In this document: one piece after another, positions 1 through 24,227 of the stretch
Numbering within the stretch: the stretch's first letter is position 1
Layout: each line of letters begins with the position of its first letter
From: a bacterium
GTDB taxonomy: Bacteria; Zhuqueibacterota; QNDG01; JAFGCO01
Length of the DNA: 64,000 bases
Assembly (NCBI GenBank): GCA_016930535.1
Contig: JAFGGN010000041.1
Span: 88,708-152,707 of the forward strand
Direction of reading: 5' to 3'
Made by a program: the position numbers and the translations under genes
Notes under the pieces: model-generated
The model's input: only the letters and a program-made list of their open reading frames with translations
The model's database searches: none
Told to the model about the DNA's origin: nothing

Positions 1-924
1 CAAATGCCCATTCTGGACGGATATAAAACAACCCACAAATTGCGCCACTGGGAGAAAAAACACACGGGAGCCGGCATGGAAAACAGCCGTCAAAAAATCC
101 CGATTATCGCCATGAGTGCGGATGTTCTGGGAGATACCGTCCGTAAATGCTTCAGCGCCGGAATGAACGACTATATCTCGAAACCTGTCGATCCAAGAAA
201 ACTCTTCGATCTGATCGCCAGGAACTTGCTGTTGTCCGCTCAACCCCTGAGTATCCCCTCCCAGGGCTACAAGACTATGATGACGAAACAAACCATACCT
301 CCAGAATTCTCATCCATCAAAACGCTGGATGTCCGGGACGGATTGAGACGCATCACTTACAACATCCCATTGTACAGGAAGCTCCTGATCATGTTCTGGC
401 ATAATTATCAGAACTTTCAAAATGACCTCGAGAACAGCCTGGTCAGCGACCTGGAAACAGCCATACGGCTCTCCCATACACTAAAGGGCGTGGCAGGCAA
501 TATCGGCGCTGTAAAAATTCATGAAGCGGCCGAACTTTTGGAAAACAGGTTGAAACGGAAGCCATATACTGCAGATCCGGAATTGATCGGAAATCTGGTG
601 ACGCATCTTTCTGAGACACTCAGGGAGCTGTCTCCCCTTGTCAGCAATGCGGGGAAGTCGCTGCCTGAAAAAACGCCCCGGAGAAAAATCGATCCGGAAG
701 CCGTTAAAACCAAATTCAGAACACTCGCAAAATCGATTGCGGACAGCAATACGGAATCCGCATCCCTGGTGGCTGATTTACAGTCGTACAGGTTTGATCC
801 AGTTCTATTGGCCAGGCTCGAAGAACTGCATGGGCTCGTATCCAATTATGATTTTGAAGATGCTGGGGAATGCTTAAAAAAAATTATGGAAATCCATAAT
901 CCGGATTTCCCCGGCGTTGAATAA
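1..924 (+). CDS. Partial (5'-truncated) hybrid-kinase C-terminus with a receiver-domain tail and an Hpt phosphotransfer domain
   Basis: The frame is open from base 1. The receiver tail reads 'IIAMSA...GMNDYISKPVD'. The Hpt signature is 'HTLKGVAGNIGA' (HxxKG). The stop is TAA at 922-924. Confidence 0.6.
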   Translation, partial: QMPILDGYKTTHKLRHWEKKHTGAGMENSRQKIPIIAMSADVLGDTVRKCFSAGMNDYISKPVDPRKLFDLIARNLLLSAQPLSIPSQGYKTMMTKQTIPPEFSSIKTLDVRDGLRRITYNIPLYRKLLIMFWHNYQNFQNDLENSLVSDLETAIRLSHTLKGVAGNIGAVKIHEAAELLENRLKRKPYTADPELIGNLVTHLSETLRELSPLVSNAGKSLPEKTPRRKIDPEAVKTKFRTLAKSIADSNTESASLVADLQSYRFDPVLLARLEELHGLVSNYDFEDAGECLKKIMEIHNPDFPGVE

Positions 925-1257
925 ACGCATCATTCCGCTGCGAGACAACTTTTTCTTCCCAGGCTGTGCGCCGTTCAGACTGTAAGGGCCAATTTCTTTT
1001 TTTACATGCGATTACGCTTATATTCCGGTCCGAACCCGGTCAGTCAATCCTGAACTCATCCAATCCGCATGCTGAAACAGGCGCCTGCCCGAATCTCAAA
1101 TTTGAAAATCCGTTTTCAAAAATGAAAATGTCCCATAACGATATATCTGGGCCTATGTCATTAAATATCATTTATTTATATTGTTTTTTATGTTTTGGCA
1201 TCCATCTTGTATTCAGTAGAATCAGGAAAACCGAAAAGCCAAAAACAGAGGTGTCTC

Positions 1258-4200
1258 ATGCCATTGATCCGACGCAAAGAAAGGAGCCTTTTCCTGATAC
1301 TGGTTTCCGTACTCCTGGTGTCTGAATTTATCGGTTTGCAAAGCACCCATCATTTGACGGGTCTTTTCTTCTCCTTTATTAATATAACGATCCTGTTCCT
1401 GCTGATCGCCCTGTACATTCTGTTGGGAAAGGATGTGTATCTTTCAGAAAACCGGATGACGACCATTCTTGAAAATGCATCCATGATCGTATATCTGAAG
1501 GATATTCAGGGAAGGTTCATGCATGTCAACCGTGCATTCGAAGTGATATACCGCATGAACCGGATACATATCATGGGAAAAACCTGTCATGACCTTCTGC
1601 CTGCCGCTCAGGCGGACATCCTGGTCAGCCATGAGAAGGAAGTGATCAATCAGGGAAAAACACGGACCTATGAAGAAACTGTGGATATGGAGGGAAATAG
1701 ATACACATTCCACAAAACTATATTCCCGCTTCGCAATCCCGACAATAAAATTACAGGTACGGGCGCCATTCTGATCGATATAACCGACAGGATCCGGATG
1801 GAGCAGGAATTGAGGGAACTGAATGCGAATCTGGGGAAAAAGATAAAAGAACGGACTGAAAGGCTGGCACAGAGTGAGGCGAAATACAGAAGTATTTTCG
1901 AAAACATCCAGGACGTGTTTTTCAGAACAGACATGAAAGGCACCATTACTGAAATCAGTCCGTCCGTCAGCCAGTATTTTTCCGTTGAACCTGAAACATT
2001 GATCGGCAGGCATGTCCGGGAACTTCTTTATCATTCCAACGATCACAAACAACTCATGCGCCGGCTCTACAGGGAAAAATCGGTCCAGGATTATGAACTT
2101 CCGTTTCGAACACCGGACAACCGGATCATCTGGACATCGGTCAATGCCCAGTTCATCTATGATTGTAAACGGAAAAAGTGCGGTATGGAAGGCGCTTTGC
2201 GTGATATCAGCCACAGAAAAACAGCTGAGATGGAAATCCGGAAACTGTCCCAGGCCGTGGAACAGAGTCCCGCCTGTGTTATTATTACCGAAAAAGAAGG
2301 CCATATTGAATATGTAAACTCGTTTTTTGAGGAATACACGGGATACGATTCTGAATTCATTACGGGCCAGCGTCTTGAAGTCATATTCTCAACTCAGGAT
2401 AAAGACGGGATCTATGATCAGATCCGGAAAAGAATCGGCGGACTCGATGCATGGCATGGAGATGTGCCGATTCGGAAAAAAGACGGGAAAATCACATGGA
2501 GCAACGGATCCATCGCCCCAATTATTGACGATCAGGGTAAAATTACTCATGTGATCGCGGTTTTTCTGGACATCAATCAAAGAAAAGAAATCGAAGAGGA
2601 ACTGCATCAGGAAAAATATCTGCTCCAGTCCCTCATGGAAAACATACCTGACGCCATTTATTTCAAGGACTGTGAAAGCCGTTTTCTCCGCATCAACCGG
2701 TCTCTCGCAGGCTTTCTCGGGCTCAACTCGCCGAAGGAGGCTGTCGGAAGAACCGATCTCGATTTTTTTGATATACGGCACGGCCAGGAAGCCTATGACG
2801 ATGAACGCAGGATCATATCCACCGGCGATCCGATCATCGGTAAAATCGAAGAAGACATCCTTCCTTCGGGATTCAGGAGATGGGTTTCAAGCACAAAAAT
2901 GCCGGTCAGGAACAGTATGGGAGATATCGTGGGCATTGTCGGCATATCCAGGGATGTAACTGATGTAAAGAACTATGAAAGAAAAATCAAGCTGCAGAAT
3001 CAGAAGTTGAAGGCGGCGAAATTCCGGGCTGAAGAAGCCACAAGGACTAAATCAGAATTTCTGGCCAATATGAGCCATGAAATCCGGACTCCCATGAATG
3101 CTATACTGGGTTTCTCGGAAATATTGAGCCGGTCCGTGACAGACCCGGTGATGAGAAACCATGTGTATGCAATCAACAGCAGCGGGAAAATGCTGCTCCA
3201 GTTGATAAACGATATACTCGACCTGTCCAAAATAGAAGCCGGTAAAATGGAACTGAATTTTACGTCTGTCAATGTCAAACACCTTTTTCATGAAATGCAG
3301 CAGATATTTTCTCATAAAATCCGGGAGAAAAACCTGGAAATGAGGATCAGCGTCGATGACAGACTGCCGGACGCGCTGCTCCTGGATGAAATCCGCATCA
3401 GGCAGATCCTGTTGAATCTGATCGGCAATGCAGTCAAGTTCACACACAAGGGCAATATCTCCGTTTCGGTATTTCAGAGGAATTTCGATGAAGCGCATTC
3501 CCGCCTGTCTCTCTGTTTCGAAGTCAGGGATACTGGTATCGGAATAGCCAAGGATCAGCAATCGGTGATTTTCGACAATTTTAAACAGCAGTCCGGACAG
3601 GACCATGCTCTGTATGGAGGAACCGGGCTCGGACTTTCCATCACCAAGCGACTCGTGGAACTGATGGACGGATCAATCGAGCTTGAAAGCAAAGAAAATG
3701 AAGGCAGCGCATTTCGTGTGATTCTGGAAAGGGTCGTAGTTTCTTCACTGCATGATATCCGCGATTATCAACTCCATGATTCCAGGGAAATCGTGTTTCA
3801 TGGAGGGAAAGTACTCGTGGTCGACGATGTGGAATCGAACCGGACATTGATACAGACATTCCTGGAATCCGGCAATCTCGAGGTGCTGCATGCGGAAAAC
3901 GGGGAAGACGCCATCCGGAAAGCCGGCTTATACATGCCTGATGTCATTCTCATGGACATTAAAATGCCCGTAATGGACGGATACGAAGCGACCCGGGAAA
4001 TCAAGAAAGATCCGCAGTTAAATAACATTCCGATTGTCATTCTGACAGCCTCGGCCATGAAACGGGATGAAAAGAGAATCCAGGATATCGGTGCGGACGG
4101 TTATTTGAGAAAACCCGTTTCCATGAATGAATTGCTGAAGGAGCTGTCGCGCCATCTCAAATATAGTGTGGGGCGCGGACCGGATGAACGGCCCGGAAGT

Positions 4201-4524
4201 CCCGATTCTGATGACCCCTTCAATGATACCGACGATATCGGTCTGCTCGTAAAAGCAGTCCGGATTATCGAACATGACCAGATGCCCGTCTGGCAAGACA
4301 TTAAGGACACAGTCATTTTAAGCGAAATCGAAGCGTTCGCCACATCCATATTCAACATCGGTGAATCCATGCAGATCGGTACATTGACAAAATGGGGGAA
4401 AACCCTGCTGCAGAAAGTGGCCAATTACGAAATGGCTTCCATTCCGCAAGTGATCGAACAATTCCCGGAATGCGTTTCAAAAATTAGATCCCGTATCGAA
4501 GAAGAAGGAGCATCCCATGGATGA
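1258..4524 (+). CDS. Hybrid sensor histidine kinase: TM, about 4 PAS/PAC, HisKA, HATPase, C-terminal REC
   Basis: The 1109-aa ORF 1195..4524 has a GAGGTG ribosome-binding site 7 nt before ATG 1258, so 1258 is preferred. HisKA reads 'MSHEIRTPMNAILGF'. The G2 box reads 'GGTGLGLSI'. The REC reads 'VLVVDDVESNR...ILMDIKMPVMDGYE'. The stop overlaps the next start (ATGGATGA). Confidence 0.85.
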   Translation: MPLIRRKERSLFLILVSVLLVSEFIGLQSTHHLTGLFFSFINITILFLLIALYILLGKDVYLSENRMTTILENASMIVYLKDIQGRFMHVNRAFEVIYRMNRIHIMGKTCHDLLPAAQADILVSHEKEVINQGKTRTYEETVDMEGNRYTFHKTIFPLRNPDNKITGTGAILIDITDRIRMEQELRELNANLGKKIKERTERLAQSEAKYRSIFENIQDVFFRTDMKGTITEISPSVSQYFSVEPETLIGRHVRELLYHSNDHKQLMRRLYREKSVQDYELPFRTPDNRIIWTSVNAQFIYDCKRKKCGMEGALRDISHRKTAEMEIRKLSQAVEQSPACVIITEKEGHIEYVNSFFEEYTGYDSEFITGQRLEVIFSTQDKDGIYDQIRKRIGGLDAWHGDVPIRKKDGKITWSNGSIAPIIDDQGKITHVIAVFLDINQRKEIEEELHQEKYLLQSLMENIPDAIYFKDCESRFLRINRSLAGFLGLNSPKEAVGRTDLDFFDIRHGQEAYDDERRIISTGDPIIGKIEEDILPSGFRRWVSSTKMPVRNSMGDIVGIVGISRDVTDVKNYERKIKLQNQKLKAAKFRAEEATRTKSEFLANMSHEIRTPMNAILGFSEILSRSVTDPVMRNHVYAINSSGKMLLQLINDILDLSKIEAGKMELNFTSVNVKHLFHEMQQIFSHKIREKNLEMRISVDDRLPDALLLDEIRIRQILLNLIGNAVKFTHKGNISVSVFQRNFDEAHSRLSLCFEVRDTGIGIAKDQQSVIFDNFKQQSGQDHALYGGTGLGLSITKRLVELMDGSIELESKENEGSAFRVILERVVVSSLHDIRDYQLHDSREIVFHGGKVLVVDDVESNRTLIQTFLESGNLEVLHAENGEDAIRKAGLYMPDVILMDIKMPVMDGYEATREIKKDPQLNNIPIVILTASAMKRDEKRIQDIGADGYLRKPVSMNELLKELSRHLKYSVGRGPDERPGSPDSDDPFNDTDDIGLLVKAVRIIEHDQMPVWQDIKDTVILSEIEAFATSIFNIGESMQIGTLTKWGKTLLQKVANYEMASIPQVIEQFPECVSKIRSRIEEEGASHG

Positions 4525-5611
4525 GCCGAACTTGAAAAAGAGACTGGTGCTCATCGTCGATGATGTGCCAAGAAATCTGCAGGTACTGGGCAGTGCCCTT
4601 AAAAATGACCGTATCGAAATCGCTGCTGCTCTCAACGGCAGGCAGGCTCTGAGTATTCTCGAAAAAGCAAAGCCTGACCTGATTTTACTGGATGTGATGA
4701 TGCCGGAGATGGATGGCTTCGAAACAATGAAGTATATAAAGGAAAATCCGGAAACCACGGATATTCCCGTGATTTTCCTGACTGCCCGGACCGAAATAGA
4801 AGATGTGGTCAAAGGCCTGGAGCTGGGCGCTGTCGATTATATCACAAAGCCGTTCAACCGTGTCGAACTGCTCACACGCGTGCACAATCATCTTGAACTC
4901 AAATATTCACGGGATGCGCTTAGAGATGCCAATGCCGCTAAAGACAAGTTTTTCTCAATTATTTCTCACGATATAAGAACGCCGTTTGCCGTGATTATCG
5001 GATTCGCCGAATATCTCGCCGAGCATTCGAAAACCATGGAAAAAAACCGGCTTTTGGAGCTATCCCAAGACATTCTGTCCGTATCCAGACAGGCACATCA
5101 GTTGTTCGAGAACCTGTTGCAATGGGCCAGGTCACAGGCAGGCCGAATCGAATTCAAACCGGAAAAAGTCGAATTTAAAAGATTGGTCGATGAAAATATC
5201 CAGTATATAAAAAATCGGGCGAACGAAAAAGGCATTCAACTCAATGTCACAATTCCTGAGAATCTGACTGTCTATGGGGACAGAAACATGCTTCATACCA
5301 TATTCCGGAATCTCACCTCGAACGCCGTCAAGTTTACCAGGCCGGGTGGAAATGTCCGTATATCGGCGGAGCCGGAGAAGGACAGTTACATTTTCTGTGT
5401 CGAGGACACCGGTGTCGGGATGCCGGACGACATCAGGAAAAAACTGTTCCGTATCGACGAGCATGTCTCCACGGCTGGTACTGAACAGGAAGAAGGTTCG
5501 GGGCTGGGCCTGATCCTGGTGAAGGAATTCGTGGAGAAACACGGCGGATCCATATGGGTTGAAAGCGAACCGGGGAAAGGCAGCCGGTTTCACATACGAA
5601 TGCCGGCATAA
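4517..5611 (+). CDS. REC-gated histidine kinase (N-terminal receiver, HisKA, HATPase; no sensor domain)
   Basis: The REC reads 'LVLIVDDVPRN...LLDVMMPEMDGFE...DYITKPF'. HisKA reads 'FFSIISHDIRTPFAVIIGF'. The G-boxes read 'EDTGVGMP' and 'GSGLGLILVK'. A GAAGGAG ribosome-binding site is present, and the start overlaps the upstream stop. Confidence 0.85.
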   Translation: MDEPNLKKRLVLIVDDVPRNLQVLGSALKNDRIEIAAALNGRQALSILEKAKPDLILLDVMMPEMDGFETMKYIKENPETTDIPVIFLTARTEIEDVVKGLELGAVDYITKPFNRVELLTRVHNHLELKYSRDALRDANAAKDKFFSIISHDIRTPFAVIIGFAEYLAEHSKTMEKNRLLELSQDILSVSRQAHQLFENLLQWARSQAGRIEFKPEKVEFKRLVDENIQYIKNRANEKGIQLNVTIPENLTVYGDRNMLHTIFRNLTSNAVKFTRPGGNVRISAEPEKDSYIFCVEDTGVGMPDDIRKKLFRIDEHVSTAGTEQEEGSGLGLILVKEFVEKHGGSIWVESEPGKGSRFHIRMPA

Positions 5612-5639: not shown

Positions 5640-6056
5640 ATGGATAATCAGACGAAAAATATTTTGATCATAGAAGACAACCGGAAATACAGCAAATTGA
5701 TACAGATGAATCTGCAGGCGGCCGGATATCATGTCATCACATCGGAAAGCGGATTGCAGGGGCTCAATGCAACCCGTCAATTCAAACCTGACCTGATTCT
5801 TCTCGACATCATGCTCCCGGAACTGGACGGCCACAAAATCAGCAGGCTGCTCAAGAAGGACCGGCAATTCAAACACATTCCAATTCTCATGTTGACTTCC
5901 AGGGATCTCGATAAGGACCGGTACTACGCAACCGCATCCAATGTTGAAGGCTACCTTCTGAAAACCGAACCAATAGAAAAAATTCTGCAAAAAGTCAAAG
6001 ACAGTCTCAATAAAAACCAAAGCATAGGCCGTTTCGGCCTTGCCCATGTGAGGTAA
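5640..6056 (+). CDS. Stand-alone CheY-like response regulator receiver
   Basis: It reads 'ILIIEDNRKYS...LILLDIMLPELDGHK...LMLTSRD'. The internal ATG at 5640 is preferred because ORF 5559 would overlap the upstream gene. There is no output domain. Confidence 0.8.
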   Translation: MDNQTKNILIIEDNRKYSKLIQMNLQAAGYHVITSESGLQGLNATRQFKPDLILLDIMLPELDGHKISRLLKKDRQFKHIPILMLTSRDLDKDRYYATASNVEGYLLKTEPIEKILQKVKDSLNKNQSIGRFGLAHVR

Positions 6057-6064
6057 AAATCTCC

Positions 6065-6862
6065 ATGTCGCAGAAAATTAAAAATTTACTGGAATCAAAT
6101 CGAGCGGATTCTGAAATCATGAATAAAAAACACCCAATTGCATGCCCGTTCCCCGATACGTCCGAAGAGATCCGGAAACTCTGCAGTCACGATATCAAAT
6201 CACCCCTCAGCGCCATCATGGAATGCTGCTCCATGTTGTTCGAGAAGATGCCCGATGAACCGTTCCTGCATGATCTGCATGCAAATATCAACGACGCTAT
6301 CGAGAGTATCTGGACCATGATCGAACGAATCCATGCGCTCGTTCTGCTGCAGGACAAAGTGATGCCGTTTCATCCTAAACCCGTGAATATAACGGCCGTT
6401 GTCCGACATGTTGAAGCGAGGCTGGAAGACCGGCTGAAAGCCCATAACATGAATCTCCTGATCCGGTCATCCGCCGAAAATGTTCTGATCGGAACGAACG
6501 CCTGCAGAATGCGCGGAGACGATGTGGTCATCGGTTTTATCGTACAGCTGATCTTGAGAATGATCCTGAACTCCGCACAGTCTGCCGGGAGCCTGATCCT
6601 GGACATTCTCCAGGAAGAAGATGTCCGGGTAATGATAAAAGGACAGAGTCGAATACACGAATCATTGATGCAGATTCAGCGCTGTCTTCATGACAATGAT
6701 ACGTCGGCGGTCAATCCGGAATTGGAATGGAGAATCCTGTATCATCTCTGCAGAATGTCCGAAACCTCCATATCCTGCGCCCCGGCACACGACGACTCAT
6801 GGACGATCACTGTGCGTTTTCCGATATTGCCGGAAAAAACAAGGTGCCCTGATCATGCTTAA
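6065..6862 (+). CDS. Histidine-kinase-like protein with a degenerate ATP-binding domain
   Basis: An H-box-like 'CSHDIKSPLSAIMEC' is present. An N-box-like 'LILRMILNSAQSAG' is present. I cannot find the DxGxG (G1) or GxGxG (G2) motifs. Confidence 0.55.
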   Translation: MSQKIKNLLESNRADSEIMNKKHPIACPFPDTSEEIRKLCSHDIKSPLSAIMECCSMLFEKMPDEPFLHDLHANINDAIESIWTMIERIHALVLLQDKVMPFHPKPVNITAVVRHVEARLEDRLKAHNMNLLIRSSAENVLIGTNACRMRGDDVVIGFIVQLILRMILNSAQSAGSLILDILQEEDVRVMIKGQSRIHESLMQIQRCLHDNDTSAVNPELEWRILYHLCRMSETSISCAPAHDDSWTITVRFPILPEKTRCPDHA

Positions 6863-8030
6863 AAATCAGCAAAAAGCGAAAGTGCTGCTCGTGGATGATC
6901 TGTCGACAAACATCGACATTTTAAAATCGTTCCTGGAATCGGACTATATTACAATTGCCGCAAAAGACGGAAAAAAGGCAATTGCTTTGGCAGAAAAACA
7001 GCGGCCGGATCTTATCCTTCTTGACATTATGATGCCCGAAATCAATGGATTTGAAGTATTGTCGCATCTGAAATCCGACAGTATGACATCTCAAATTCCA
7101 ATCATGCTGATTTCATCAATCGATGACCGTGAATCCATCGTAAGAGGCTTCAGGGAGGGGGCGCACGATTATATTACCAAACCGTTTGAATCGGAAGAAC
7201 TTAAGGCAAGGATTTCAACACAGATTAAAATAAAAAGGCAAAGCGACTTGTTGACTCAAATGAATAAGGTTCTTGAAAACGAGGTCGAAAAACGGACCCG
7301 ACAACTTGAAGCCACCAATCAAATGCTGAAGGAAGCAAACGCACGGCTGAATAAATTCAGTCTGATCAAAAACCGTTTTCTCAATATCATTAGCCATGAA
7401 ATGAGGACACCTCTGGCCATCATGTCCCAATATATCGAGATTCTGAGCGAGGAATTGAATTCGGGTCGCTCTTCGGACTGCATCCGGGACATCAGCCAGG
7501 CTTATAGCAGAATACAATCCTTTTCCGAAAAGGCGCTGCTGATCACACAGCTCGACTCGGATGGATATTGTCTGAATCCGGAACCATTGAATATGGCCCA
7601 GTTAACAGAAACAGTTTTCCGGCAATTGGCTCCTGTTCCGGAATCCAAAGCAATTTCAATAAATAAAACCGGGGACTCCGATGTCATGATTTTCGGCGAC
7701 CGATCACTGATTCAATCATTGATTCACATTATTCTCGAGAATGCTGTTGGTTATTCCCGGAATGGCGGTGAAATCAGACTCCATTTTGCCGCATCCGGCA
7801 ATACAGTCGGAATATCTATCTTTGACACCGGGCCCGGATTTCCCGAAGAAGTCCTGCTCTATGCCTTTCAGCCTTTCTGCATCGGGAAAGAACCGATAAG
7901 GGAAAATTTCGGCCTCTCACTGACCATCGCCAGGCTGATCATGGAAGTACACCAGGGCAATATCGAGATAGCCAATCATAAAGACGGAGCCGTCGTTCAT
8001 CTGATATTTACACAATCGAAGGAGGATTAA
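6855..8030 (+). CDS. REC-gated histidine kinase (REC, HisKA, HATPase)
   Basis: The internal ATG at 6855 overlaps the upstream stop. The REC reads 'KVLLVDDLSTN...LILLDIMMPEINGFE...DYITKPF'. HisKA reads 'FLNIISHEMRTPLAI'. The G1 box reads 'FDTGPGF'. Confidence 0.8.
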   Translation: MLKNQQKAKVLLVDDLSTNIDILKSFLESDYITIAAKDGKKAIALAEKQRPDLILLDIMMPEINGFEVLSHLKSDSMTSQIPIMLISSIDDRESIVRGFREGAHDYITKPFESEELKARISTQIKIKRQSDLLTQMNKVLENEVEKRTRQLEATNQMLKEANARLNKFSLIKNRFLNIISHEMRTPLAIMSQYIEILSEELNSGRSSDCIRDISQAYSRIQSFSEKALLITQLDSDGYCLNPEPLNMAQLTETVFRQLAPVPESKAISINKTGDSDVMIFGDRSLIQSLIHIILENAVGYSRNGGEIRLHFAASGNTVGISIFDTGPGFPEEVLLYAFQPFCIGKEPIRENFGLSLTIARLIMEVHQGNIEIANHKDGAVVHLIFTQSKED

Positions 8031-8034: not shown

Positions 8035-8412
8035 ATGGATCACAGAAAAAAGGTCATCGTGGTGGAAGATGAACTGTCTTTTGCCAAAGTAATTAAAATG
8101 CGGCTGGAATCGCACGGCTATAGCGTGGAAATCGTCAGCGATGCTTATCAGGGCACGCAGTCCATATTTAAAAATCAGTACGACCTGATCATCCTCGATC
8201 TCATGATGCCGGCCGGTGGCGGATTCTCTTTGCTGGACAGAATCAGAAAGAATCCGAACAAGTCCGCGATTCCGGTTATTGTGGTGACTGGTAAAAATTT
8301 GGATGAAACAGACCGACTGACGGCCGAAAATAATGAGGTAAAGGCGGTATTTCAAAAACCGTACAACACTGAAAAATTCATGAATGTCGTGCAGGCGCTG
8401 GCCCCGGCGTGA
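8035..8412 (+). CDS. Stand-alone CheY-like receiver of the PxGGG variant
   Basis: An AAGGAGG ribosome-binding site is present. It reads 'VIVVEDELSFA...LIILDLMMPAGGGFSLLD...VIVVTGKN'. GGG replaces the usual MDG after the phospho-Asp. Confidence 0.8.
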   Translation: MDHRKKVIVVEDELSFAKVIKMRLESHGYSVEIVSDAYQGTQSIFKNQYDLIILDLMMPAGGGFSLLDRIRKNPNKSAIPVIVVTGKNLDETDRLTAENNEVKAVFQKPYNTEKFMNVVQALAPA

Positions 8413-9861: not shown

Positions 9862-10281
9862 CTATGACTCGGTCAACGTGTAGACCAGTTGTACAGGTGA
9901 AGATGCGGTTTGTTCCGATTTAAAAATCAGTGTGCACTTGTCCTGCATCCCATGCAGCGATTCAGTGATATTCCGATGCGAATCTGAGAGCAGCCGTTCG
10001 GATTTTCCCCGGATTATCAATACACCGCCAGACCGGCCACTTTCCGTGCAGGAGGAAACGGTCACCAGTTTATTCTGATGTGCTGTCCGCCAGAAAAGCG
10101 TGTGTTCGGATTTATATTTCTTGCTTATATTTAAAGTACTTCCTGAATGCTTGTCTGCTGCCGCCAATGACATGGTGTTGGGTCGAATAATACGAAACCG
10201 GATCGAATGACCGGCTGAATTGCCCGCCTCAATAAACGATGAAGCGAATAACATCATCAGAATCAGAAGGGTTGTCTTCAT
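9862..10281 (-). CDS. Small secreted hypothetical protein
   Basis: The ATG at 10281 ('MKTTLLILMMLFASSFIEA' signal peptide) follows a GGAGA ribosome-binding site. The longer ORF begins at a TTG. Confidence 0.45.
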   Translation of the reverse strand: MKTTLLILMMLFASSFIEAGNSAGHSIRFRIIRPNTMSLAAADKHSGSTLNISKKYKSEHTLFWRTAHQNKLVTVSSCTESGRSGGVLIIRGKSERLLSDSHRNITESLHGMQDKCTLIFKSEQTASSPVQLVYTLTES

Positions 10282-10821: not shown

Positions 10822-11185
10822 GATTAAGTATTTTCTTTATTATAATTTGAAAACGTTCAGGATCGTAAGGTTTGATCATCAGGTCCGCGACACCAAAATT
10901 ACGCAGTTTTGCTTCCAGAGCCGGATTGATCGTCTGGCCTGTGAGTACAATGACCGGAATGTGCATCAGTCCGTTTATCCCTCTTTGTTCGAGAACTTTT
11001 ATACCGCCACCGCCCGGAACCATCAGATCCAGAATCAACAGGCTATATCGATTCGTTAAAAATGCACGGATTCCCTGCAGGGTATGATTTTCAATATCAC
11101 ATTGCCAGCCGTCGAGACTCAGCCGCAGTTGGACCATCTCAGCAAATTCTTTTTCGTCTTCTATGATGAGAATTTTACCCTGCAT
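10799..11185 (-). CDS. Stand-alone CheY-like receiver of the PxGGG variant
   Basis: It reads 'KILIIEDEKEF...LLILDLMVPGGGGIKVLE...VIVLTGQ'. It overlaps the downstream gene by 23 nt. Confidence 0.75.
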   Translation of the reverse strand: MQGKILIIEDEKEFAEMVQLRLSLDGWQCDIENHTLQGIRAFLTNRYSLLILDLMVPGGGGIKVLEQRGINGLMHIPVIVLTGQTINPALEAKLRNFGVADLMIKPYDPERFQIIIKKILNLEGAAIE

Positions 11186-17516: not shown

Positions 17517-17875
17517 GGCATTCTCATCCCTTCTTATCTGTATATAAAACAGGATGAATCCAGGTCAGTCGTAATTTTACTGATCCTGACTCTATCCTGG
17601 ATGAATATATGTATCGATTTGAATTTCGGGGCAATTATTTGGAAATTACATGTTACACGGATAAAAGGCAAGCGAAAATTCTTCCTAAAATAATACAAGC
17701 TTATTATACAGGTATTTCTTATAAATTGCCAATTTTTCTTGATAATTCCTGAAATATTATTTACATTTATATTATTACAGCATAATGAACATGTCTGCAG
17801 ATTCTACATTAAAACATTAAAACGGTTCTCACGAAGTCTCTCTTCCGATCGATTCAATTAGTGAGGGATCCTGAA

Positions 17876-19855
17876 ATGAAGAAATCCCGATTGAGCCGTT
17901 TTTTTATGATCCTGATCGTATTTACTCAAACCCTCTATACATTGTACGCCCAGAAACAGAATATGGACGAACTCCTGGATCTAAGTCTCGAAGAACTTGC
18001 AAACGTACATATAATTACCACTTTTAAAATACCTCAAAAAATAAAAGAAGTACCGGCCGTCATAAGAGTCATCACAGATGAACAGATCAGGAACAACGGT
18101 TATCTGACTCTGGAGGAGGCCCTTTCCACCCTGCCGGGCATGCAATTCCGGAACATCAACAGTTTTAACAGTTACGTGTTCATGCGCGGAGCGCCCAGCC
18201 AGAACAATCTTATTTTGGTCCTGATCGACGGCATACAAATAAACGAGCTGAATTCGGGAGGTTTTTATGGAGGGGCTCAGTATAATTTATCCAATGTTGA
18301 ACGCATCGAGATTGTCTATGGTCCTGCATCCGCCTTATATGGCACCAATGCCATTTCCGGAATCATTAATATTATCACAAAGAAACCCGAAAAATATTCC
18401 GGACTCGATCTTAATGCTCTCGCCGGGACGTTTAATACAATGCATATAAATATGGGCTATGGATACTGGAACAGCAGCAAAAAAATGGGATTTCGTATTT
18501 CAGGTTCTGCCAAGACCAGTGAAAAGGCCGATCTGAAAGAGAAGGCCGGAGACAACAACTGGACCGCTTCTTTGGAGAATTTTGAAGACGATTATTCAGT
18601 CGATGCAAATGTGAAATGGTATAAATTCTGTTTTGAATTGAATTATCTTGAAAAACGGAGTTCAGCGGCCACATACAATAAATCTGTAGGTACTGATTAT
18701 CGTGATACCGGCACATTCTGGGATATCAGATTCTTCAACACCGCTCTGAAGCACGATACTGATTTAGGCCCAAAAACGGTGATGTCATCCCAAATCTATT
18801 ACCGCAATACATCGGTACTGGACAATTCTGTTCTGGTCGTCACCGACACGGCACAAATCGGTTATTACCGCCCCAACAGTCTTTTCGGATTTGAAAGCAT
18901 GATTCATTATTCTACACCAAAACGTTTTGACCTGATCACCGGAATATTATATGAAAACGAAAACCTCGCCCGGAAATACTCAAATACTTACAGCACTGGA
19001 CCGGATATTAGACCCCGAAAGCCCGATGAACCGCCTATGGAATACAATACACTGTTGAGTATCTACGGACAGACCAAACTGTTTTTAACACCACCGGTCG
19101 AACTCTACGCCGGGGCACGGTTCGATAACAGCAGTGCCTATCATCGCGTGTTCACACCCCGTCTGGGACTGGTATACAATAAAAACAGCTTGACTGCAAA
19201 ATTGATTTATATGGAAGCATTCCGTGCCCCAAAACCTTGGGATTATGCGAACGGACTGGGAAATCCCCTTCTAAAATCCGAGCGCATCCGTTCGTATGAG
19301 TTGTATGCTAGCCGTGTGCTGATGCCCGATCTCGTGTTGAATTTCTCAATATATTCGAACCGTCTAAGCAATCTTTTGGTTAAGGAATCCTATGCAGATG
19401 AATCGTGGCGCTGGATTAATCACGGTCAACTAAACACCAATGGGTATGAAATTTGCGTGGAATACAGAAAACGGAAAATCCGGTCTTCAGCCAACTATAC
19501 ATGGAACAATTCGACCGACGAAAACAACAGGACAATTCCCGAAATCAGCAGACATTGTTCGAACCTGATTCTGCAGTATTCTTTATCAGGTAAATTCCAT
19601 TTCAGTATCGGTTGTCATTATATAGGAAGAAGAAAAAATACCCGTACTATTTCGACGACCGGCAGTAATTTTGTGGATGCCGCATTCATCGTCCACTCGG
19701 CATTGACTTATGTTTTATCTTCGAATTGGGAAATGCAACTGGCTGTCAAGAATCTGAAGAATGCCGAATACTATCATACATCGAATCTGTCTCCGGATCG
19801 ATATCGTCAGCCGCAAAGAACCGTCATTTTTAAAGCGGGATATCATCTGAAATAA
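17876..19855 (+). CDS. TonB-dependent outer-membrane receptor
   Basis: A GAGGGA ribosome-binding site sits 7 nt before ATG 17876. A signal peptide is present. The plug domain reads 'VIRVITDEQIRNNGYLTLEEALSTLPGMQF...IEIVYGPASALYGTNAISGIINIITK'. A beta-barrel follows. Confidence 0.85.
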   Translation: MKKSRLSRFFMILIVFTQTLYTLYAQKQNMDELLDLSLEELANVHIITTFKIPQKIKEVPAVIRVITDEQIRNNGYLTLEEALSTLPGMQFRNINSFNSYVFMRGAPSQNNLILVLIDGIQINELNSGGFYGGAQYNLSNVERIEIVYGPASALYGTNAISGIINIITKKPEKYSGLDLNALAGTFNTMHINMGYGYWNSSKKMGFRISGSAKTSEKADLKEKAGDNNWTASLENFEDDYSVDANVKWYKFCFELNYLEKRSSAATYNKSVGTDYRDTGTFWDIRFFNTALKHDTDLGPKTVMSSQIYYRNTSVLDNSVLVVTDTAQIGYYRPNSLFGFESMIHYSTPKRFDLITGILYENENLARKYSNTYSTGPDIRPRKPDEPPMEYNTLLSIYGQTKLFLTPPVELYAGARFDNSSAYHRVFTPRLGLVYNKNSLTAKLIYMEAFRAPKPWDYANGLGNPLLKSERIRSYELYASRVLMPDLVLNFSIYSNRLSNLLVKESYADESWRWINHGQLNTNGYEICVEYRKRKIRSSANYTWNNSTDENNRTIPEISRHCSNLILQYSLSGKFHFSIGCHYIGRRKNTRTISTTGSNFVDAAFIVHSALTYVLSSNWEMQLAVKNLKNAEYYHTSNLSPDRYRQPQRTVIFKAGYHLK

Positions 19856-19882: not shown

Positions 19883-20416
19883 ATGACAAAAAAAATACTC
19901 GTCTCGTTTTACCTTCTATTTTCTCCGTGTGTCTGTGAACCGAACATGACAAATCTGGATGCAGAATACGGCTACGAAGTAAAAGCCGTATTCATATACA
20001 ATTTCACTAAATACATAAACTGGATCGACGATGATCGGTCGCCGTATTTCGACATCGCCGTTATAGGAGAGAGTCCGATTACTGAACCACTGAAACAGAT
20101 TGCTCAAAAACGTCTAGTCTGTCAGAAAAAGATTAAAATCAGTCAACTTGAAAATGCAGATCAAATCGACTATTGTCATATTATATTTATACCGGAATCT
20201 GAAAAATCCCATCTGAAATATATTGTGAGTCGGGTTCAAAATAAAAATATACTAATCGTATGCGAAATAAAAAACTCGCTTGAGAGCGGCGCCATGATCA
20301 ATTTTGTACCTGCTCAGGATAAAATAAAATTTGAAATCAATCTGCTGGCAATGAATAAATCGAGTTTCAATCCGGGATCCGAATTGCTGAAGCTGGCCGT
20401 GCGGCTGATTGATTAG
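19883..20416 (+). CDS. YfiR-like DUF4154 periplasmic protein
   Basis: It reads 'KAVFIYNFTKYINW', the YfiR/DUF4154 signature. A signal peptide is present. It sits between the TonB receptor and the kinase. Confidence 0.7.
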   Translation: MTKKILVSFYLLFSPCVCEPNMTNLDAEYGYEVKAVFIYNFTKYINWIDDDRSPYFDIAVIGESPITEPLKQIAQKRLVCQKKIKISQLENADQIDYCHIIFIPESEKSHLKYIVSRVQNKNILIVCEIKNSLESGAMINFVPAQDKIKFEINLLAMNKSSFNPGSELLKLAVRLID

Positions 20417-20428: not shown

Positions 20429-22336
20429 GTGAAAATTATTCATGAATTCCCCATCAAGGGGAAACTGATACTGATTCAATTATTGACAACATTTACAGTG
20501 ATGCTGTTTTACAGTATATTTCACATTATTCGAGACACCCAATTTTACTTTAATTCTGTAAGTCATGAATTGACCACGATGACAAAGCTGGTTGGATCAA
20601 GCTGCATATCAGCTCTGCATTTTCTCGATAAGGAGGCCGCCCAAAAAAACCTTTCCGCACTTGAAGCGGAGGAGAATGTCGTAAATGCCTGGATTCATGA
20701 TTCGGACAGCGTACTCTTTGCTGCATACTATAAAGACGGATATGTTCTTGATAAACCGTTGGATAAAATCATTAAAAAACAGGATAAATTTATCGTCACT
20801 TCGAGACCGATTGTGTACGAGGGGGAAATCATCGGTTTTATTTCCATTCGTTATGATATGAAAGTATATCGGCAGATAATTTATAAAAACACAATGATCA
20901 CTCTGATCATATTTCTGATAGGTATGGGAACCGCCTGGTTGCTGGCGATTTTTACACAAAGAACCATTTCAGATCCGATTCTGAAATTGCTGGAGAGTAT
21001 GAGAATAATTTCTGAAACCGGAAACTACGGTATTCGCCCGGTTAAACAGAGAAACGATGAAATCGGCATACTCTCAGATGGCATATGCGAAATGCTGGAA
21101 CAAATACAAATTCGTGAAAATGAAAGAAATGCTGTAAACAGAGCCTTACATGAGAGCGAAGACAAATATCGAAACCTTGTGGAACGTGCGAACGACGGTA
21201 TCGTTATCCTGCAGGACGGTATTTTCAAGTATGTTAATCCGAGCCTGGTGACAATGGCCGGATGTACTGAACAAGAGCTGTTGGGTAAACCTTTTGTCGA
21301 TTTCATACATGAGGAAGAACGATCTAAAGTGATGGAGAATTATTTCAGGCGAATGGCCGGGGAGACAGTCTACAGCATGTATGAAACCCAATTTAAAACG
21401 AGCAGTGAAGAAGTGATCGATGCGGAGGTTAATGCGGGTTTCATCTCGTATCTGGGAAAACCGGCCGATCTGGTCATTATCCGGAATATTACCCGACGAA
21501 AACAGATGGAACGGGAACTAATTAAACACCGCAACCATCTCGAGGAGCTTGTTGAAGAACGGACGAAAGAACTGGCCGAAGCGAATAAACGTCTACTTGA
21601 ATTGGATCGTTTGAAATCAATGTTTTTGGCTTCGATGAGCCACGAACTTCGAACTCCGTTGAATTCGATTATCGGTTTTACGGGAATTCTGCTTATGGGA
21701 ATGGCTGGCACCCTGAATCCTGAACAAAAAAAACAGCTGGAAATGGTGAAAAGCAGTGCCAGCCACCTGCTGGATCTGATCAACGACATTTTGGATATTT
21801 CAAAAATCGAATCGGACAAGGTAGATCTTTCAATTCAAACATTCGATTTGGTCGATGTCATTCTTGAGGTAATAAAATCCATTCGGCCGATCGCGGACAG
21901 TAAAAATTTGCATTTATCTTATCATGGCATTGAAAATATCCGGATTGACAGCGATAGACGACGGGTTAAACAAGTTCTAATGAATCTGATTTCAAACTCT
22001 GTTAAATTCACGGATAGCGGTTCAGTGACGGTTACCCTCACCTCTATAAATGACCTATCCGTTTCCGTAGAGGTAAAAGATACCGGAATAGGTATTCGTA
22101 AAGAGGAACTTAACATACTGTTCCATCCATTTCAACAATTGGATATGTCATCCACAAAGAAATACGAGGGTACCGGACTGGGTTTATATCTTTCGAAAAA
22201 AATCATAAGCCTTCTGCACGGTGAAATTTCCGTTGCCAGCAAGTACGGTGAAGGAAGTGCATTCACATTCGTGCTGCCGATCCAATGGCAAAAGGAGAAA
22301 AAAAGTGAAAACTGTGTTGATCATCGAGGACAATGA
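20429..22336 (+). CDS. Sensor histidine kinase (TM, HAMP, PAS, HisKA, HATPase)
   Basis: The start is GTG, with an AGGAGG ribosome-binding site 9 nt upstream. HisKA reads 'MSHELRTPLNSIIGF'. The G-boxes read 'KDTGIGI' and 'GTGLGLYLSK'. Confidence 0.85.
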   Translation: MKIIHEFPIKGKLILIQLLTTFTVMLFYSIFHIIRDTQFYFNSVSHELTTMTKLVGSSCISALHFLDKEAAQKNLSALEAEENVVNAWIHDSDSVLFAAYYKDGYVLDKPLDKIIKKQDKFIVTSRPIVYEGEIIGFISIRYDMKVYRQIIYKNTMITLIIFLIGMGTAWLLAIFTQRTISDPILKLLESMRIISETGNYGIRPVKQRNDEIGILSDGICEMLEQIQIRENERNAVNRALHESEDKYRNLVERANDGIVILQDGIFKYVNPSLVTMAGCTEQELLGKPFVDFIHEEERSKVMENYFRRMAGETVYSMYETQFKTSSEEVIDAEVNAGFISYLGKPADLVIIRNITRRKQMERELIKHRNHLEELVEERTKELAEANKRLLELDRLKSMFLASMSHELRTPLNSIIGFTGILLMGMAGTLNPEQKKQLEMVKSSASHLLDLINDILDISKIESDKVDLSIQTFDLVDVILEVIKSIRPIADSKNLHLSYHGIENIRIDSDRRRVKQVLMNLISNSVKFTDSGSVTVTLTSINDLSVSVEVKDTGIGIRKEELNILFHPFQQLDMSSTKKYEGTGLGLYLSKKIISLLHGEISVASKYGEGSAFTFVLPIQWQKEKKSENCVDHRGQ

Positions 22337-22664
22337 TAAAAACCTGTATTTGTTACGCTTTCTTATAGAGAAACTCGGCCATCGTGTCATCGAAGCCAGG
22401 GACGGCTTGAACGGAGTGAAAGTGGCCATGATCGAAAAACCGGATGTCATTTTAATGGATATACAGCTTCCGGCGATGGACGGATATGAAGCCACGCAAG
22501 AAATTCGATCGATGGATTCATTCAGAAATGTTCCCATAATTGCAATCACATCCTATGCCATGGAAGGAGACCGCGAAAAATCATTGGCTGCCGGGTGTAC
22601 GGATTATATTGAAAAGCCCATAAAACCCGAGCAGTTTATTGAAAGAATCAAATCATACCTTTAA
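22305..22664 (+). CDS. Stand-alone CheY-like receiver
   Basis: A GTG start at 22305 follows an AAGGAG ribosome-binding site and overlaps the kinase's 3' end. It reads 'VLIIEDNDKNL...VILMDIQLPAMDGYE...IIAITSYA'. Confidence 0.75.
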   Translation: MKTVLIIEDNDKNLYLLRFLIEKLGHRVIEARDGLNGVKVAMIEKPDVILMDIQLPAMDGYEATQEIRSMDSFRNVPIIAITSYAMEGDREKSLAAGCTDYIEKPIKPEQFIERIKSYL

Positions 22665-22675
22665 GGGAGCCATCC

Positions 22676-23833
22676 ATGAAAATCCTGATCGTCGATGATA
22701 AAGACGAAAATCTGCTGTTACTCAACACCCTGTTAAAAGGAATCGGTCACGATGTGGAACAGGCGGAAAACGGTAAAAAAGCTCTGGAAAAGTTGAAAAA
22801 AAATACTTTTGAAATGATTATATCCGATATCCTTATGCCTGTAATGGATGGATATGAACTCTGCCAGGCATGTAAAAAGGATCCTGAATTAAAAAATATT
22901 GTTTTTGTTTTCTATACAGCCACCTATACAGAAAAAAACGATGAAATATATGCCATGCAATTGGGTGCAGATAAATTTCTGATCAAACCCATGGAACCGA
23001 AAGCATTCCTGTCGGCCATAACCGAACTGGCCAAGAAAGTAGAACAGCATAAAATCATCGTGAAAAAGCCCGAAATTGCAGATGCCGAAGCAATTAAAAT
23101 GCATCGGGATCGGCTTCTGAACAAACTCAGTAAAAAAATAGAGGAATTGCAATCAGAAATAGAAAGGCGCAAAAAAGCCGAAGAACAGGTCCAGAAAGAT
23201 TTAATGGAGAAAGAAATCCTGCTCCGTGAACTTTATCATCGGACAAAAAACAACATGCAGGTTATTTGTTCAATGCTTCGACTGAAGGCTCGCTTTACAA
23301 AGAACCAGGAATTGACCGGAATTTTAACGGAAATTGAGAATAAAATATCATGCATGGCACTCGTTCAACAAAAACTTTACGATTCAAACAACCTGTCTTA
23401 TATAAATCTAATAGAATACATCGAAAGTCTTGTCCAGTTGATTAAGGAAAGTTATGCTTCATCATTGGAAGGAATAGTAATTTCTGTCAATGGTGACGTC
23501 ATCAAAGTTCTGTTGGATACGGCGATTCCGTGTGGCCTGATAATCAATGAACTGATGACGAATACAATCAAGCATGCCTTCCCCGATACATCCAAAGGCA
23601 ATTTGGATATATCCCTGAACTTGAATGAAACAAGAGAACTCGTTCTCAGGGTTTCGGATAATGGCATCGGTCTTCGGGATGACTTGAACACAGTGAAGAG
23701 CCGAGGTCTCGGAATTCAAACCATACTGGATCTGGTCGAGTACCAGCTCGACGGAGTAGTGAATTTTGAAAACAGAGACGGCCTCTGCTGTACGATTATC
23801 CTGAAACAAGAACTTTACGAACCAAGGATTTAA
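22676..23833 (+). CDS. REC-gated HisKA_2-type histidine kinase
   Basis: The REC reads 'ILIVDDKDENL...ISDILMPVMDGYE'. The H-box is of the HisKA_2 (HWE-like) type, 'HRTKNNMQVI'. A HATPase_c_2 region follows. Confidence 0.75.
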   Translation: MKILIVDDKDENLLLLNTLLKGIGHDVEQAENGKKALEKLKKNTFEMIISDILMPVMDGYELCQACKKDPELKNIVFVFYTATYTEKNDEIYAMQLGADKFLIKPMEPKAFLSAITELAKKVEQHKIIVKKPEIADAEAIKMHRDRLLNKLSKKIEELQSEIERRKKAEEQVQKDLMEKEILLRELYHRTKNNMQVICSMLRLKARFTKNQELTGILTEIENKISCMALVQQKLYDSNNLSYINLIEYIESLVQLIKESYASSLEGIVISVNGDVIKVLLDTAIPCGLIINELMTNTIKHAFPDTSKGNLDISLNLNETRELVLRVSDNGIGLRDDLNTVKSRGLGIQTILDLVEYQLDGVVNFENRDGLCCTIILKQELYEPRI

Positions 23834-23834
23834 T

Positions 23835-24227
23835 ATGTGTGGCAATTTAAAGGTCCTGATTGTTGAAGATGAGTATTTGACAGCAAAATGCATCTTCCAT
23901 GAATTAAAAGATTTGGATACTGATCCGCTGAATCCAGTCGCAAAAGGTGAACTTGCTGTCCAAGTGGCTTTAAATGAAAAACCGGATCTTATTCTGATGG
24001 ATATCCGTTTAGCCGGTAAAATGGATGGTATCGAAGCCGCACAAAAAATCAAGAACCAGATAGATATCCCAGTTGTATTTTTTTCAGGATATGCAACGGA
24101 GCAGATCGTTAAAAAAGCAAAAACCGTCAATTACCTTGAATTCCACGAAAAACCCGTGACAATTGGGCTGTTAAAATCCATTATTGATCGATTAAAAGTA
24201 CAAATTAAAGAAAGGAAATCACTTTAA
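23835..24227 (+). CDS. Stand-alone receiver
   Basis: It reads 'VLIVEDEYLTA...LILMDIRLAGKMDGIE...VVFFSGY'. The start codon abuts the upstream stop. Confidence 0.75.
   Translation: MCGNLKVLIVEDEYLTAKCIFHELKDLDTDPLNPVAKGELAVQVALNEKPDLILMDIRLAGKMDGIEAAQKIKNQIDIPVVFFSGYATEQIVKKAKTVNYLEFHEKPVTIGLLKSIIDRLKVQIKERKSL

Follow-up and report, generated by a model that had tools for sequence, protein, structure and literature searches.

A stretch of 64,000 nucleotides from a bacterium of the Zhuqueibacterota (contig JAFGGN010000041.1 of assembly GCA_016930535.1, positions 88,708 to 152,707; hereafter the 64-kb window) carries near its left end a crowd of genes for histidine kinases (HKs) and phospho-acceptor receiver (REC) domains, and raises the question whether these genes form one signalling network or several that have come to lie together. 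The initial annotation described them as a single supercluster of a system type not known before, without transcriptional output. This interpretation was found to be only partly supported. We consider it rather probable that the region, distinct in its composition, is a mosaic in which at least four self-contained operons for phosphorelays of known types lie side by side, and not one designed network: the modules are conserved separately and relatives combine them differently, and the supercluster is therefore taken as an accretion of independent operons. The observed basis of this model is the domain content, the intact catalytic residues, the operon junctions, the loss of ATP-binding motifs from one gene (g05), and the independent conservation of the modules. 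The claim of a new system type falls, because REC-controlled HKs (Rec-HKs), phosphorelays through HK-like His phosphotransferases or pseudokinases, and multikinase networks have all been described already. Worth attention are a six-gene operon, in which a TonB-dependent receptor (TBDR), a YfiR-like protein and a CHASE8 kinase are encoded together with a Rec-HK cascade, and the rare protein family of g05.

Signalling genes of the window

Open reading frames (ORFs) were listed over positions 1-30,000 of the window, and the plausible genes were scanned with Pfam; in a second scan, hidden Markov models (HMMs) built from the window's own REC and kinase domains were run over the whole 64 kb. The parts list claimed before, consisting of 8 kinase-type genes, 14 REC domains, one histidine-containing phosphotransfer (Hpt) domain and four REC-kinases, was reproduced by the two scans. 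All 14 REC domains and all 8 kinase genes are located within the first 24.2 kb, and none was detected with our own HMMs in the other 40 kb. Pfam likewise recovered the six stand-alone receivers (5640-6056, 8035-8412, 10294-10821, 10799-11185, 22305-22664 and 23835-24227) and the single REC-PAS-PAS gene, and resolved the four REC-kinases into three of REC-HisKA-HATPase type (g03, g06 and g13) and one of REC-HisKA_2-HATPase type (g19). By alignment with CheY, the acidic pair, the phospho-accepting Asp, the Thr/Ser and the Lys were found to be kept in 13 of the 13 complete REC domains, and the H-box His is present in every kinase-type gene, g05 included.

As judged from their sequence features, g03, g06, g13 and g19 are Rec-HKs. 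Each has a full phospho-acceptor set (Asp at 59, 57, 55 and 51, respectively) and a HisKA or HisKA_2 domain followed by HATPase_c, in which the N, G1 and G2 boxes could be aligned, the G2 box of g06 being partly degenerate. The linkers between REC and the phospho-acceptor His are 28, 60, 48 and 72 residues long, with neither Pfam match nor transmembrane (TM) helix. Linkers of only 28-72 residues without a TM helix leave no room for a missed sensor domain. No output domain was found fused to any receiver, since OmpR, NarL, NtrC, LytTR and other effectors were absent by Pfam at E<=0.01, and no che genes (CheA, CheW or MCP) were present among the window ORFs scanned with Pfam. The initial annotation had singled out a DNA-binding output domain in a receiver, or a hidden sensor domain in a REC-kinase, as the findings that would speak against it; neither turned up, the former at the same threshold of E<=0.01.

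The signalling genes are indeed arranged in three blocks, but the layout given before needed correction in each of them. Block 3 begins at 17861 and not at 20429. Block 2 is interrupted by an AT-rich gap of 345 bp (12802-13146) and also holds a small secreted-protein gene (9862-10281). The parts of block 1 are real, but its first gene runs off the window, and the cluster is cut on the left. The tight gene junctions pointed out within the blocks are real. The sequence ATGGATGA is located at 4517-4524, where the start of g03 overlaps the stop of g02 by 8 nt; the ATG of g06 at 6855 lies inside the stop region of g05 ending at 6862; g06 and g07 (8030/8035) are separated by a 4-nt gap; and the GTG of g18 at 22305 overlaps the kinase gene g17, which ends at 22336. 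Promoter and terminator scans gave nothing above the shuffled expectation and were not used for operon definition.

The REC density of the window is at the top of the comparator range, not of another order. A scan with an alignment of g03, which keyed on a generic receiver motif, retrieved REC-kinases of the same architecture at 27-43% identity from Bacteroidales, Chloroflexota, Verrucomicrobia, cyanobacteria, Thiomargarita and others, and these serve as a control for density, not for synteny. In 80 loci around related REC-kinases of many phyla, 1-9 REC domains were counted per <=21.6 kb, and other dense loci (loci and contigs used for comparison are given L numbers) carry 7 REC domains in 8 kb (L007) or 11 in 12.5 kb (L087).

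A receptor, a YfiR-like protein and a CHASE8 kinase in one operon

Block 3 consists of the following six genes, here called operon D.

g15, 17861..19855, plus strand: TonB-dependent receptor with plug and barrel, about 660 amino acids (aa), first gene of the block-3 operon (Pfam)
g16, 19883..20416, plus strand: secreted YfiR/HmsC-like protein, DUF4154 (PF13689; E 2.8e-36 over the full profile), with N-terminal hydrophobic leader (Pfam)
g17, 20429..22336, plus strand: inner-membrane kinase, TM-CHASE8-TM-HAMP-PAS-HisKA-HATPase (Pfam, TM scan)
g18, 22305..22664, plus strand: single-domain receiver, GTG start after AAGGAG, 32-nt overlap with the end of g17
g19, 22676..23833, plus strand: Rec-HK of HisKA_2/HWE type, D51/H188, 72-residue helical linker (Pfam)
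g20, 23835..24227, plus strand: single-domain receiver, last gene of block 3 (Pfam)

This operon was found again in L082-L086 and L090-L099. All six orthologues are present in the same order in L082 (63/57/71/76/48/55% identity for g15 to g20) and in L083 (57/46/61/74/55/45%), where the neighbours are an esterase and a glycoside hydrolase, and five of the six were detected in the Acidobacteriota locus L085. The orthologues of g15 in L082, L083 and L085 are 44-63% identical. The CHASE8 domain of g17 was recognized at E 1.6e-12, with TM helices at residues 13-31 and 157-175 that enclose a periplasmic domain of residues ~32-156, and the protein belongs to a large family of orthologues with 41-72% identity. 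Those of g18 (64-76% identity) and of g19, some with extra PAS domains, occupy the same positions, while g20 has orthologues in L082 and L083 and none in L085. No orthologue of block-1 or block-2 genes was detected near the block-3 orthologous loci.

JGI metagenome contigs were then scanned with a four-sequence alignment of the CHASE8 N-terminus, and 67 non-redundant loci were annotated, a sample of the domain calls on metagenome loci being confirmed by Pfam. Among loci with enough upstream sequence, 21 of 23 CHASE8 kinases were immediately preceded by a DUF4154 gene, and 13 of 15 had the pair of TBDR and DUF4154 genes upstream. The kinase gene is often followed by REC and then REC-HK genes, as in L093, L099, L114, L117, L136 and L137; for CHASE8-HK-REC-REC proteins, the downstream gene often encodes REC-GGDEF instead. 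The front end of the six-gene operon recurs in metagenome loci with kinase or cyclase effectors.

The TBDR and the YfiR-like protein had been proposed as readouts of the cluster. Their two genes open the operon and are kept upstream of CHASE8 kinases in other loci, and it is via CHASE8 that YfiR represses YfiN; for these reasons g15 and g16 are probably inputs rather than readouts. YfiR, itself a DUF4154 protein, represses the cyclase YfiN via a periplasmic domain now classed as CHASE8, and is sequestered by the outer-membrane lipoprotein YfiB (PMC8085984; PMC4655355). In g15, Pfam places the Plug match from residue 61 on; among solved structures CirA and BtuB come nearest, and alignment to them puts the plug start at residue ~48-60. 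The N-terminal STN signalling extension was absent from g15 both by Pfam and by alignment to CirA and BtuB, and no sigma or anti-sigma gene was detected among the window ORFs scanned with Pfam.

We propose that the periplasmic YfiR-like g16 would bind and control the CHASE8 domain of g17, with g15 in the outer-membrane place that YfiB has in YfiBNR. The kinase g17 would phosphorylate the receiver of g18 and/or g19, and g19 would then signal to g20. Here, as in the operons below, we infer every phosphotransfer step and its direction, together with the interactions of g15, g16 and g17. The triad of TBDR, YfiR-like protein and CHASE8 kinase might represent an undescribed trans-envelope route, in which the state of an STN-less receptor is reported to a kinase by capture or release of the YfiR-like protein, as a two-component counterpart of FecA-FecR-FecI that drives a chain of REC, Rec-HK (HisKA_2) and REC, while the same island holds in the g05 family a rare and independently evolved His-phosphotransferase pseudokinase. 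This joint proposal is offered tentatively, as a possibility that is rather unlikely to hold in full. If true, receptor gating of a kinase via a YfiR-like protein would extend the logic of YfiBNR to outer-membrane nutrient or ligand sensing, and TBDRs would gain a second way to signal. A literature search on TBDRs together with DUF4154, YfiR or CHASE8, limited to one library, found no such system.

Variations of the front end were also observed. In L137 (4476-9878) and L167 (4531-9700), two TBDR-DUF4154 pairs are located beside one CHASE8 protein, one divergent and one co-directional in the former and both divergent in the latter, which hints that several receptors can feed one CHASE8 sensor. 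The CHASE8-GGDEF proteins (YfiN-like, with the sensor 25-30% identical) are mostly without a co-directional DUF4154 gene (L152, L154, L157, L160 and L167); beside them, TBDR-DUF4154 is divergent in L152, L157, L160 and L167, and DUF4154 alone is divergent in L154. Their gene order differs from that of the CHASE8 kinases.

The readout of these cascades may be given by terminal single-domain receivers that bind unlinked proteins, or by response regulators encoded elsewhere that carry the output. The stand-alone orthologous operons in L083, L085 and L089 have no output regulator within 10 kb, indicating that ending in single receivers is a conserved trait of the modules. This finding speaks against an explanation that we nevertheless regard as quite possible, if short of probable, namely that the missing output is an artefact of the view and that the cascades end on DNA-binding or enzymatic regulators, encoded to the left of the window or elsewhere, for control of transcription or of cyclic di-GMP (c-di-GMP). 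The window start cuts g01; the closest block-3 relative, L082, has a REC-GerE regulator gene at the cluster margin; comparator REC-kinase clusters contain OmpR-type, GGDEF, GGDEF-EAL and CheB regulators; and distant TBDR-DUF4154-CHASE8 systems end in REC-GGDEF. The factor downstream of LvrB in Leptospira was likewise unknown before LvrC (lic11110), a REC-RsbW-like anti-sigma factor, was picked from among 50 L. interrogans response regulators by structural modelling and phosphotransfer profiling (PMC13269768). The earlier statement that the region has no transcriptional output thus stands for domains fused to receivers within the window, but not as a conclusion on the cluster, given its cut left edge and the REC-GerE regulator of L082.

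The g05 pseudokinase and the operons of blocks 1 and 2

Block 1 contains the following genes, of which g02-g07 make up operon A.

g01, 1..924, plus strand: 3' part of a larger gene truncated by the window edge, with half a REC domain (C-terminal) and Hpt with its His (SHTLKG) (Pfam)
g02, 1258..4524, plus strand: two closely spaced TM helices, four PAS domains, HisKA, HATPase and REC (Pfam, TM scan)
g03, 4517..5611, plus strand: soluble Rec-HK with REC, dimerization and histidine phosphotransfer (DHp) and catalytic (CA) domains, D59/H151, 28-residue helical linker (Pfam)
g04, 5640..6056, plus strand: single-domain receiver with intact active site (Pfam, alignment)
g05, 6065..6862, plus strand: pseudokinase with a weak HisKA match only (Pfam)
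g06, 6855..8030, plus strand: second Rec-HK, D57/H181, G2 box partly degenerate (Pfam, alignment)
g07, 8035..8412, plus strand: single-domain receiver, last gene of the block-1 operon (Pfam)

The Response_reg match of g01 (profile positions 52-110) begins at residue 1 and the Hpt match has E 3e-11; the gene probably represents the end of an unorthodox hybrid kinase. Kinases of the Rec-controlled class are described as frequent, with LvrB as the structural prototype, and the hybrid kinase LvrA phosphorylates the LvrB receiver, by which the catalytic domain of LvrB is freed (PMC13269768). A hybrid kinase followed by a REC-kinase is also the arrangement of g02 and g03, and g03 aligns to LvrB (8vc9) over residues 46-363 with E 2.4e-21. 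The kinase-phosphorylates-kinase cascade suggested by the initial annotation is plausible by this analogy, as a type already described. We propose that g02 is to g03 what LvrA is to LvrB: as upstream kinase, the membrane-bound PAS hybrid kinase would phosphorylate the receiver of the soluble Rec-HK and thereby turn on its autokinase. The phosphoryl group would then pass from the His of g03 to the receiver g04, to the conserved His of g05 and to the terminal receiver g07. The C-terminus of g02 (4225-4521, plus strand) extends about 100 residues past the receiver without any family match; this tail was tried as a degenerate Hpt and rejected (BLASTP E 4.9 against the Hpt of g01, no Pfam match).

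A second organism from the same sample is represented by L001, a 3-kb contig carrying in order a g03-like (69% identity), a g04-like (70%), a g05-like (32%) and a g07-like gene (69%), followed by non-coding DNA, with no g06. The order of kinase, single receiver, g05 and single receiver is conserved between the window and L001, and g06 is proposed to be a lineage-specific second Rec-HK branch of operon A.

The gene g05 had been noted as a kinase with a degenerate ATPase, and alignment with the window's true kinases confirmed that its N, G1, F and G2 boxes are all absent. By exhaustive HMMER search of 1.84 billion representatives, the g05 family was found to comprise 5 members only (E<=4e-29), generic kinases starting at E 1e-14, and the ATP boxes are absent from all five. 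In an index of 5.8 billion proteins, the single close relative of g05 is the one located on L001, and a genome scan with g05 alone found no relative. The H-box of its DHp domain, CSHDIKSPL with His42, is identical in homologues that are only ~30% identical overall; CSHD[IM]KSP is shared by g05, P0002, P0243 and P0244, P0245 being truncated at the N-terminus. The AlphaFold (AF2) model of g05, of modest confidence (pLDDT 63), has an HK-core fold, and its best Foldseek matches include the RetS kinase region, DivL, HK853 and LvrB. Such fold searches give an HK core only and do not separate the roles of carrier, phosphatase and inhibitor. Against PDB sequences g05 gave no match at E<=1, and no homology to ChpT, Spo0B or PhyT was detectable. 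What g05 shares with HK-like His phosphotransferases is a DHp-like hairpin with a conserved His and a CA-like fold without ATP-binding boxes.

The role that we favour by analogy is that g05 is probably a His phosphoryl carrier between receivers, and its family a probable independent example of a kinase turned phosphoryl carrier. Within the family, conservation peaks at and around the phospho-acceptor His, something that binding alone would not call for, and the position between two single receivers, kept in L001 without g06, fits a relay. The possibility that g05 is instead a regulatory pseudokinase, which would bind and inhibit or dephosphorylate its partner, through DHp heterodimers as RetS with GacS, through a receiver as DivL with DivK~P, or as an ATP-independent phosphatase as RedE, is less likely on these grounds, even though the RetS kinase region and DivL are among the best matches of its model, the HisKA phosphatase-type motif H-D-x-x-S is retained, and the DHp domains of the two flanking Rec-HKs are possible pairing partners. 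PhyT, too, was first taken for a phosphatase and then shown to be a bifunctional phosphotransferase (PMC5898713).

Block 2 is transcribed in the opposite direction and contains two groups of genes, operon B (g13-g12) and operon C (g11-g10-g09-g08).

g08, 9862..10281, minus strand: small protein with N-terminal hydrophobic leader, no family, end of the g11 operon
g09, 10294..10821, minus strand: single-domain receiver, start codon uncertain (Pfam)
g10, 10799..11185, minus strand: single-domain receiver (Pfam)
g11, 11206..12801, minus strand: hybrid kinase with multi-TM N-terminus, HisKA, HATPase and REC, probable start at 12792 (Pfam, TM scan)
g12, 13147..14487, minus strand: REC-PAS-PAS with coiled C-terminal tail, no catalytic or DNA-binding domain (Pfam)
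g13, 14595..15812, minus strand: Rec-HK, D55/H167, NtrB-like H-box (VHNLSNP) (Pfam, alignment)

In operon B, the Rec-HK g13 would be paired with the REC-PAS-PAS protein g12 as its partner; in operon C, the membrane hybrid kinase g11 goes with two single receivers. The triad g11-g10-g09 recurs in L087-L089 with 50-62%, 42-62% and 47-57% identity, and g13 and g12 do not travel with it. In L089, a locus of KSB1, the triad stands alone among unrelated genes; it is also present on contig L088, and in L087 it sits inside a different receiver-rich cluster with a REC-Hpt protein. About 25 orthologues of g11 were found (511-546 aa, 46-62% identity over 96-100% of the length), one of them from a KSB1 metagenome-assembled genome.

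The N-terminal 160 residues of g11 (12400-12792, minus strand) contain a duplicated motif, IYWIIEAVRD and GYWILEAFRD (repeated YWI-EA-RD), and 3-4 TM helices; the region has no Pfam family, and from its sequence looks like an unannotated membrane sensor domain. In g09, alignment revealed an insertion of ~14 residues (GFETSGSTGTTLVDRHM) directly after the phospho-Asp loop; the orthologues in L087, L088 and L089 are near-equal in length, and the insertion thus seems to be conserved. L087 (1-12471), from another uncultivated organism, encodes 11 REC domains, four kinases and the REC-Hpt protein around its g11-type triad, and here too no output domain is recorded. Superclusters rich in receivers seem to be characteristic of this lineage.

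Integration and origin of the region, and known systems

An integrated kinase-on-kinase network of the whole 24 kb, read out by protein-protein contacts via the TBDR, the YfiR-like protein and a fused STAS-RsbW-like protein (g21), is improbable. Comparison of gene neighbourhoods on metagenome loci gave a divided answer: receiver-rich relatives exist (at least 8 REC domains in L082, and in L087 the 11 REC domains with a REC-Hpt protein), and the 14 receivers and 8 kinases of the window all lie next to one another, but the modules recur apart, in other organisms and with different or unrelated neighbours, so that the claim of one supercluster could not be upheld. The blocks are moreover interrupted by an insertion sequence (IS) remnant and by a core-like enolase-family gene, and the TBDR-DUF4154 pair keeps its place upstream of CHASE8 sensors with each kind of effector (HK, HK-REC or GGDEF), which is how input parts should behave. 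The Lvr system ends in an RsbW-like anti-sigma protein, and a partner-switch readout is therefore not far-fetched. The product of g21 does match HATPase_c_2 (E 7e-24); its C-terminal half resembles RsbW (E 2.5e-7) and its N-terminal half, faintly, SpoIIAA (E 0.65). The gene has no receiver, however, and is located beyond a tRNA-Val gene, convergent to block 3, with a core-like guanine-plus-cytosine (GC) content of 0.50; it was absent at every block-3 orthologous locus examined, and no sigma factor was found in the window. We see no specific link between g21 and the cluster, in contrast to its proposed role as a readout.

Several points weigh against the mosaic of independent operons and the schemes drawn for them. 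The modules are also found inside receiver-rich neighbourhoods in L082 and L087, and their co-location may have some selective value or allow cross-talk. The cluster extends past the left edge of the window, where g01 is cut, beyond view. Kinases and partners were assigned from gene order only. Direct transfer from REC to REC between g02 and g03 is impossible, so that either the His of g02 serves the REC of g03 directly or the Hpt of g01 intervenes. The similarity of g16 to YfiR is strong by the Pfam profile alone, with phmmer against the solved YfiR giving only E 0.88. Finally, the surroundings of the orthologous modules in L083, L085 and L089 do not show the GC deviation described below.

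The GC content is 0.47 in block 1, 0.44 in block 2 and 0.41 in block 3, while the enolase-family gene has 0.55 and the other 38 kb have 0.52; along the sequence, values of ~0.36-0.43 at 18-25 kb give way to 0.52 from 26 kb on. Two further features mark the borders of the blocks.

9209..9493, minus strand: transposase (DDE_Tnp_1) fragment (Pfam, E 1e-5)
24877..24953, minus strand: tRNA-Val (cac) between the low-GC signalling region and the STAS-RsbW-like g21 (ARAGORN)

Around the transposase fragment, between blocks 1 and 2, the ORFs are short and broken over 1.4 kb (8424-9790). An independent Logan contig of 5.1 kb (L170, run SRR13394437), identical over ~4.7-9.8 kb of the window and including an identical copy of g04, carries the same remnant, which is therefore not an assembly artefact. 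Look-ups by exact protein with g02, g03 and P0001 (g05 as recorded at NCBI) gave no match, and that with g04 gave this contig only. The tRNA gene could be the boundary of a tRNA-flanked island, and the composition suggests horizontal acquisition of the signalling region, which stays suggestive only, because the orthologous modules lack the GC deviation. That the island is decaying, non-functional DNA brought by a mobile element, as the low GC, the transposase fragment, the broken ORFs and the adjacent tRNA gene might imply, is very hard to reconcile with 20 of 20 intact signalling ORFs, with catalytic residues present in all but g05, whose degeneracy is common to its whole family, and with orthologues 45-76% identical in conserved order. 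A tRNA-Thr (cgt) gene is located at 29022-29095 (minus strand), 4 kb past tRNA-Val. The enolase-superfamily (MR/MLE) gene, at 16161-17516 (minus strand) between two low-GC blocks, gives the impression of a core gene with the blocks inserted to its left and right.

Among the products encoded in the remainder of the window are type IX secretion cargo, a PorV-like protein, LpxL and TonB receptors. The host is probably a relative of the FCB group. Large cargo genes follow one another at 45167-57990 (plus strand) and encode a GEVED/PKD protein (1425 aa), a tandem pair of arylsulfotransferase-like proteins with a carbohydrate-binding module, and a DUF7948/SBBP protein, whose gene falls in a second patch of low GC (0.39-0.40 at 54-58 kb). 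Long ORFs at 38777-42885 and 30829-34013 (289, 527, 265, 349 and 710 aa) match no Pfam family at E<=0.001.

Among known systems, the Lvr pair of Leptospira is closest in arrangement to g02 and g03 (PMC13269768; PMC5863495): the gene of a PAS hybrid kinase is followed by that of a sensor-less REC-DHp-CA kinase, REC and DHp are connected via a helical linker, the Asp and His are spaced alike (D59/H151 in g03, D56/H161 in LvrB), and the operon has no DNA-binding regulator. The similarity of g03 to LvrB is, however, no greater than that to generic kinases. The window has four Rec-HKs, one of them of HisKA_2 type, with single receivers and a pseudokinase as partners, and no REC-RsbW protein, g21 having a STAS-like head in place of REC.

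RedCDEF of Myxococcus is a four-component system, in which RedE is an ATP-independent phosphatase. As in GacS/RetS/LadS (PMC5992135; PMC5812489) and HmrABCX of Caulobacter (PMC11481889), kinases, hybrids, pseudokinases and single receivers occur together here and the signalling genes are without DNA-binding domain; the model of g05 matches the kinase region of RetS. Those systems and RedCDEF converge on known regulators or c-di-GMP, whereas the modules of the window look separable.

In the KinA-Spo0F-Spo0B-Spo0A relay, phosphoryl groups pass from an HK to REC, to an HK-like His carrier and to REC. The g05 operon resembles this relay, as well as Pak-SdrG-PhyT-PhyR and the CckA-ChpT-CtrA/CpdR relay with its HK-like His phosphotransferase ChpT (PMC3433190), in containing a kinase, a single receiver, a His-bearing protein of HK fold without ATP motifs, and a receiver. 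It differs in that g05 is a soluble protein of HisKA descent, and in that the terminal acceptor is without output domain.

Operon D is like YfiBNR and HmsCDE in that a secreted DUF4154 protein is encoded beside an inner-membrane TM-CHASE8-TM-HAMP protein, with an outer-membrane component in the operon (PMC4655355; PMC8085984; PMC5550408). In contrast to the GGDEF cyclases of those systems, g17 is a histidine kinase (PAS-HisKA-HATPase) that would feed receivers. The outer-membrane partner g15 is a TBDR instead of the OmpA/Pal-like lipoprotein of YfiBNR, no OmpA-like gene being present in the block-3 operon or its orthologues, and the gene order of outer-membrane protein, YfiR-like protein and sensor differs from that of YfiBNR and HmsCDE.

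Cell-surface signalling by FecA-FecR-FecI employs a TonB-dependent transducer with an STN domain and a pair of anti-sigma and extracytoplasmic function (ECF) sigma factors. Operon D shares with it a TonB-dependent receptor encoded together with an inner-membrane signalling protein. Unlike that system, g15 is without STN and no anti-sigma/ECF sigma pair is encoded, and any link between receptor and kinase would run via the YfiR-like periplasmic protein.

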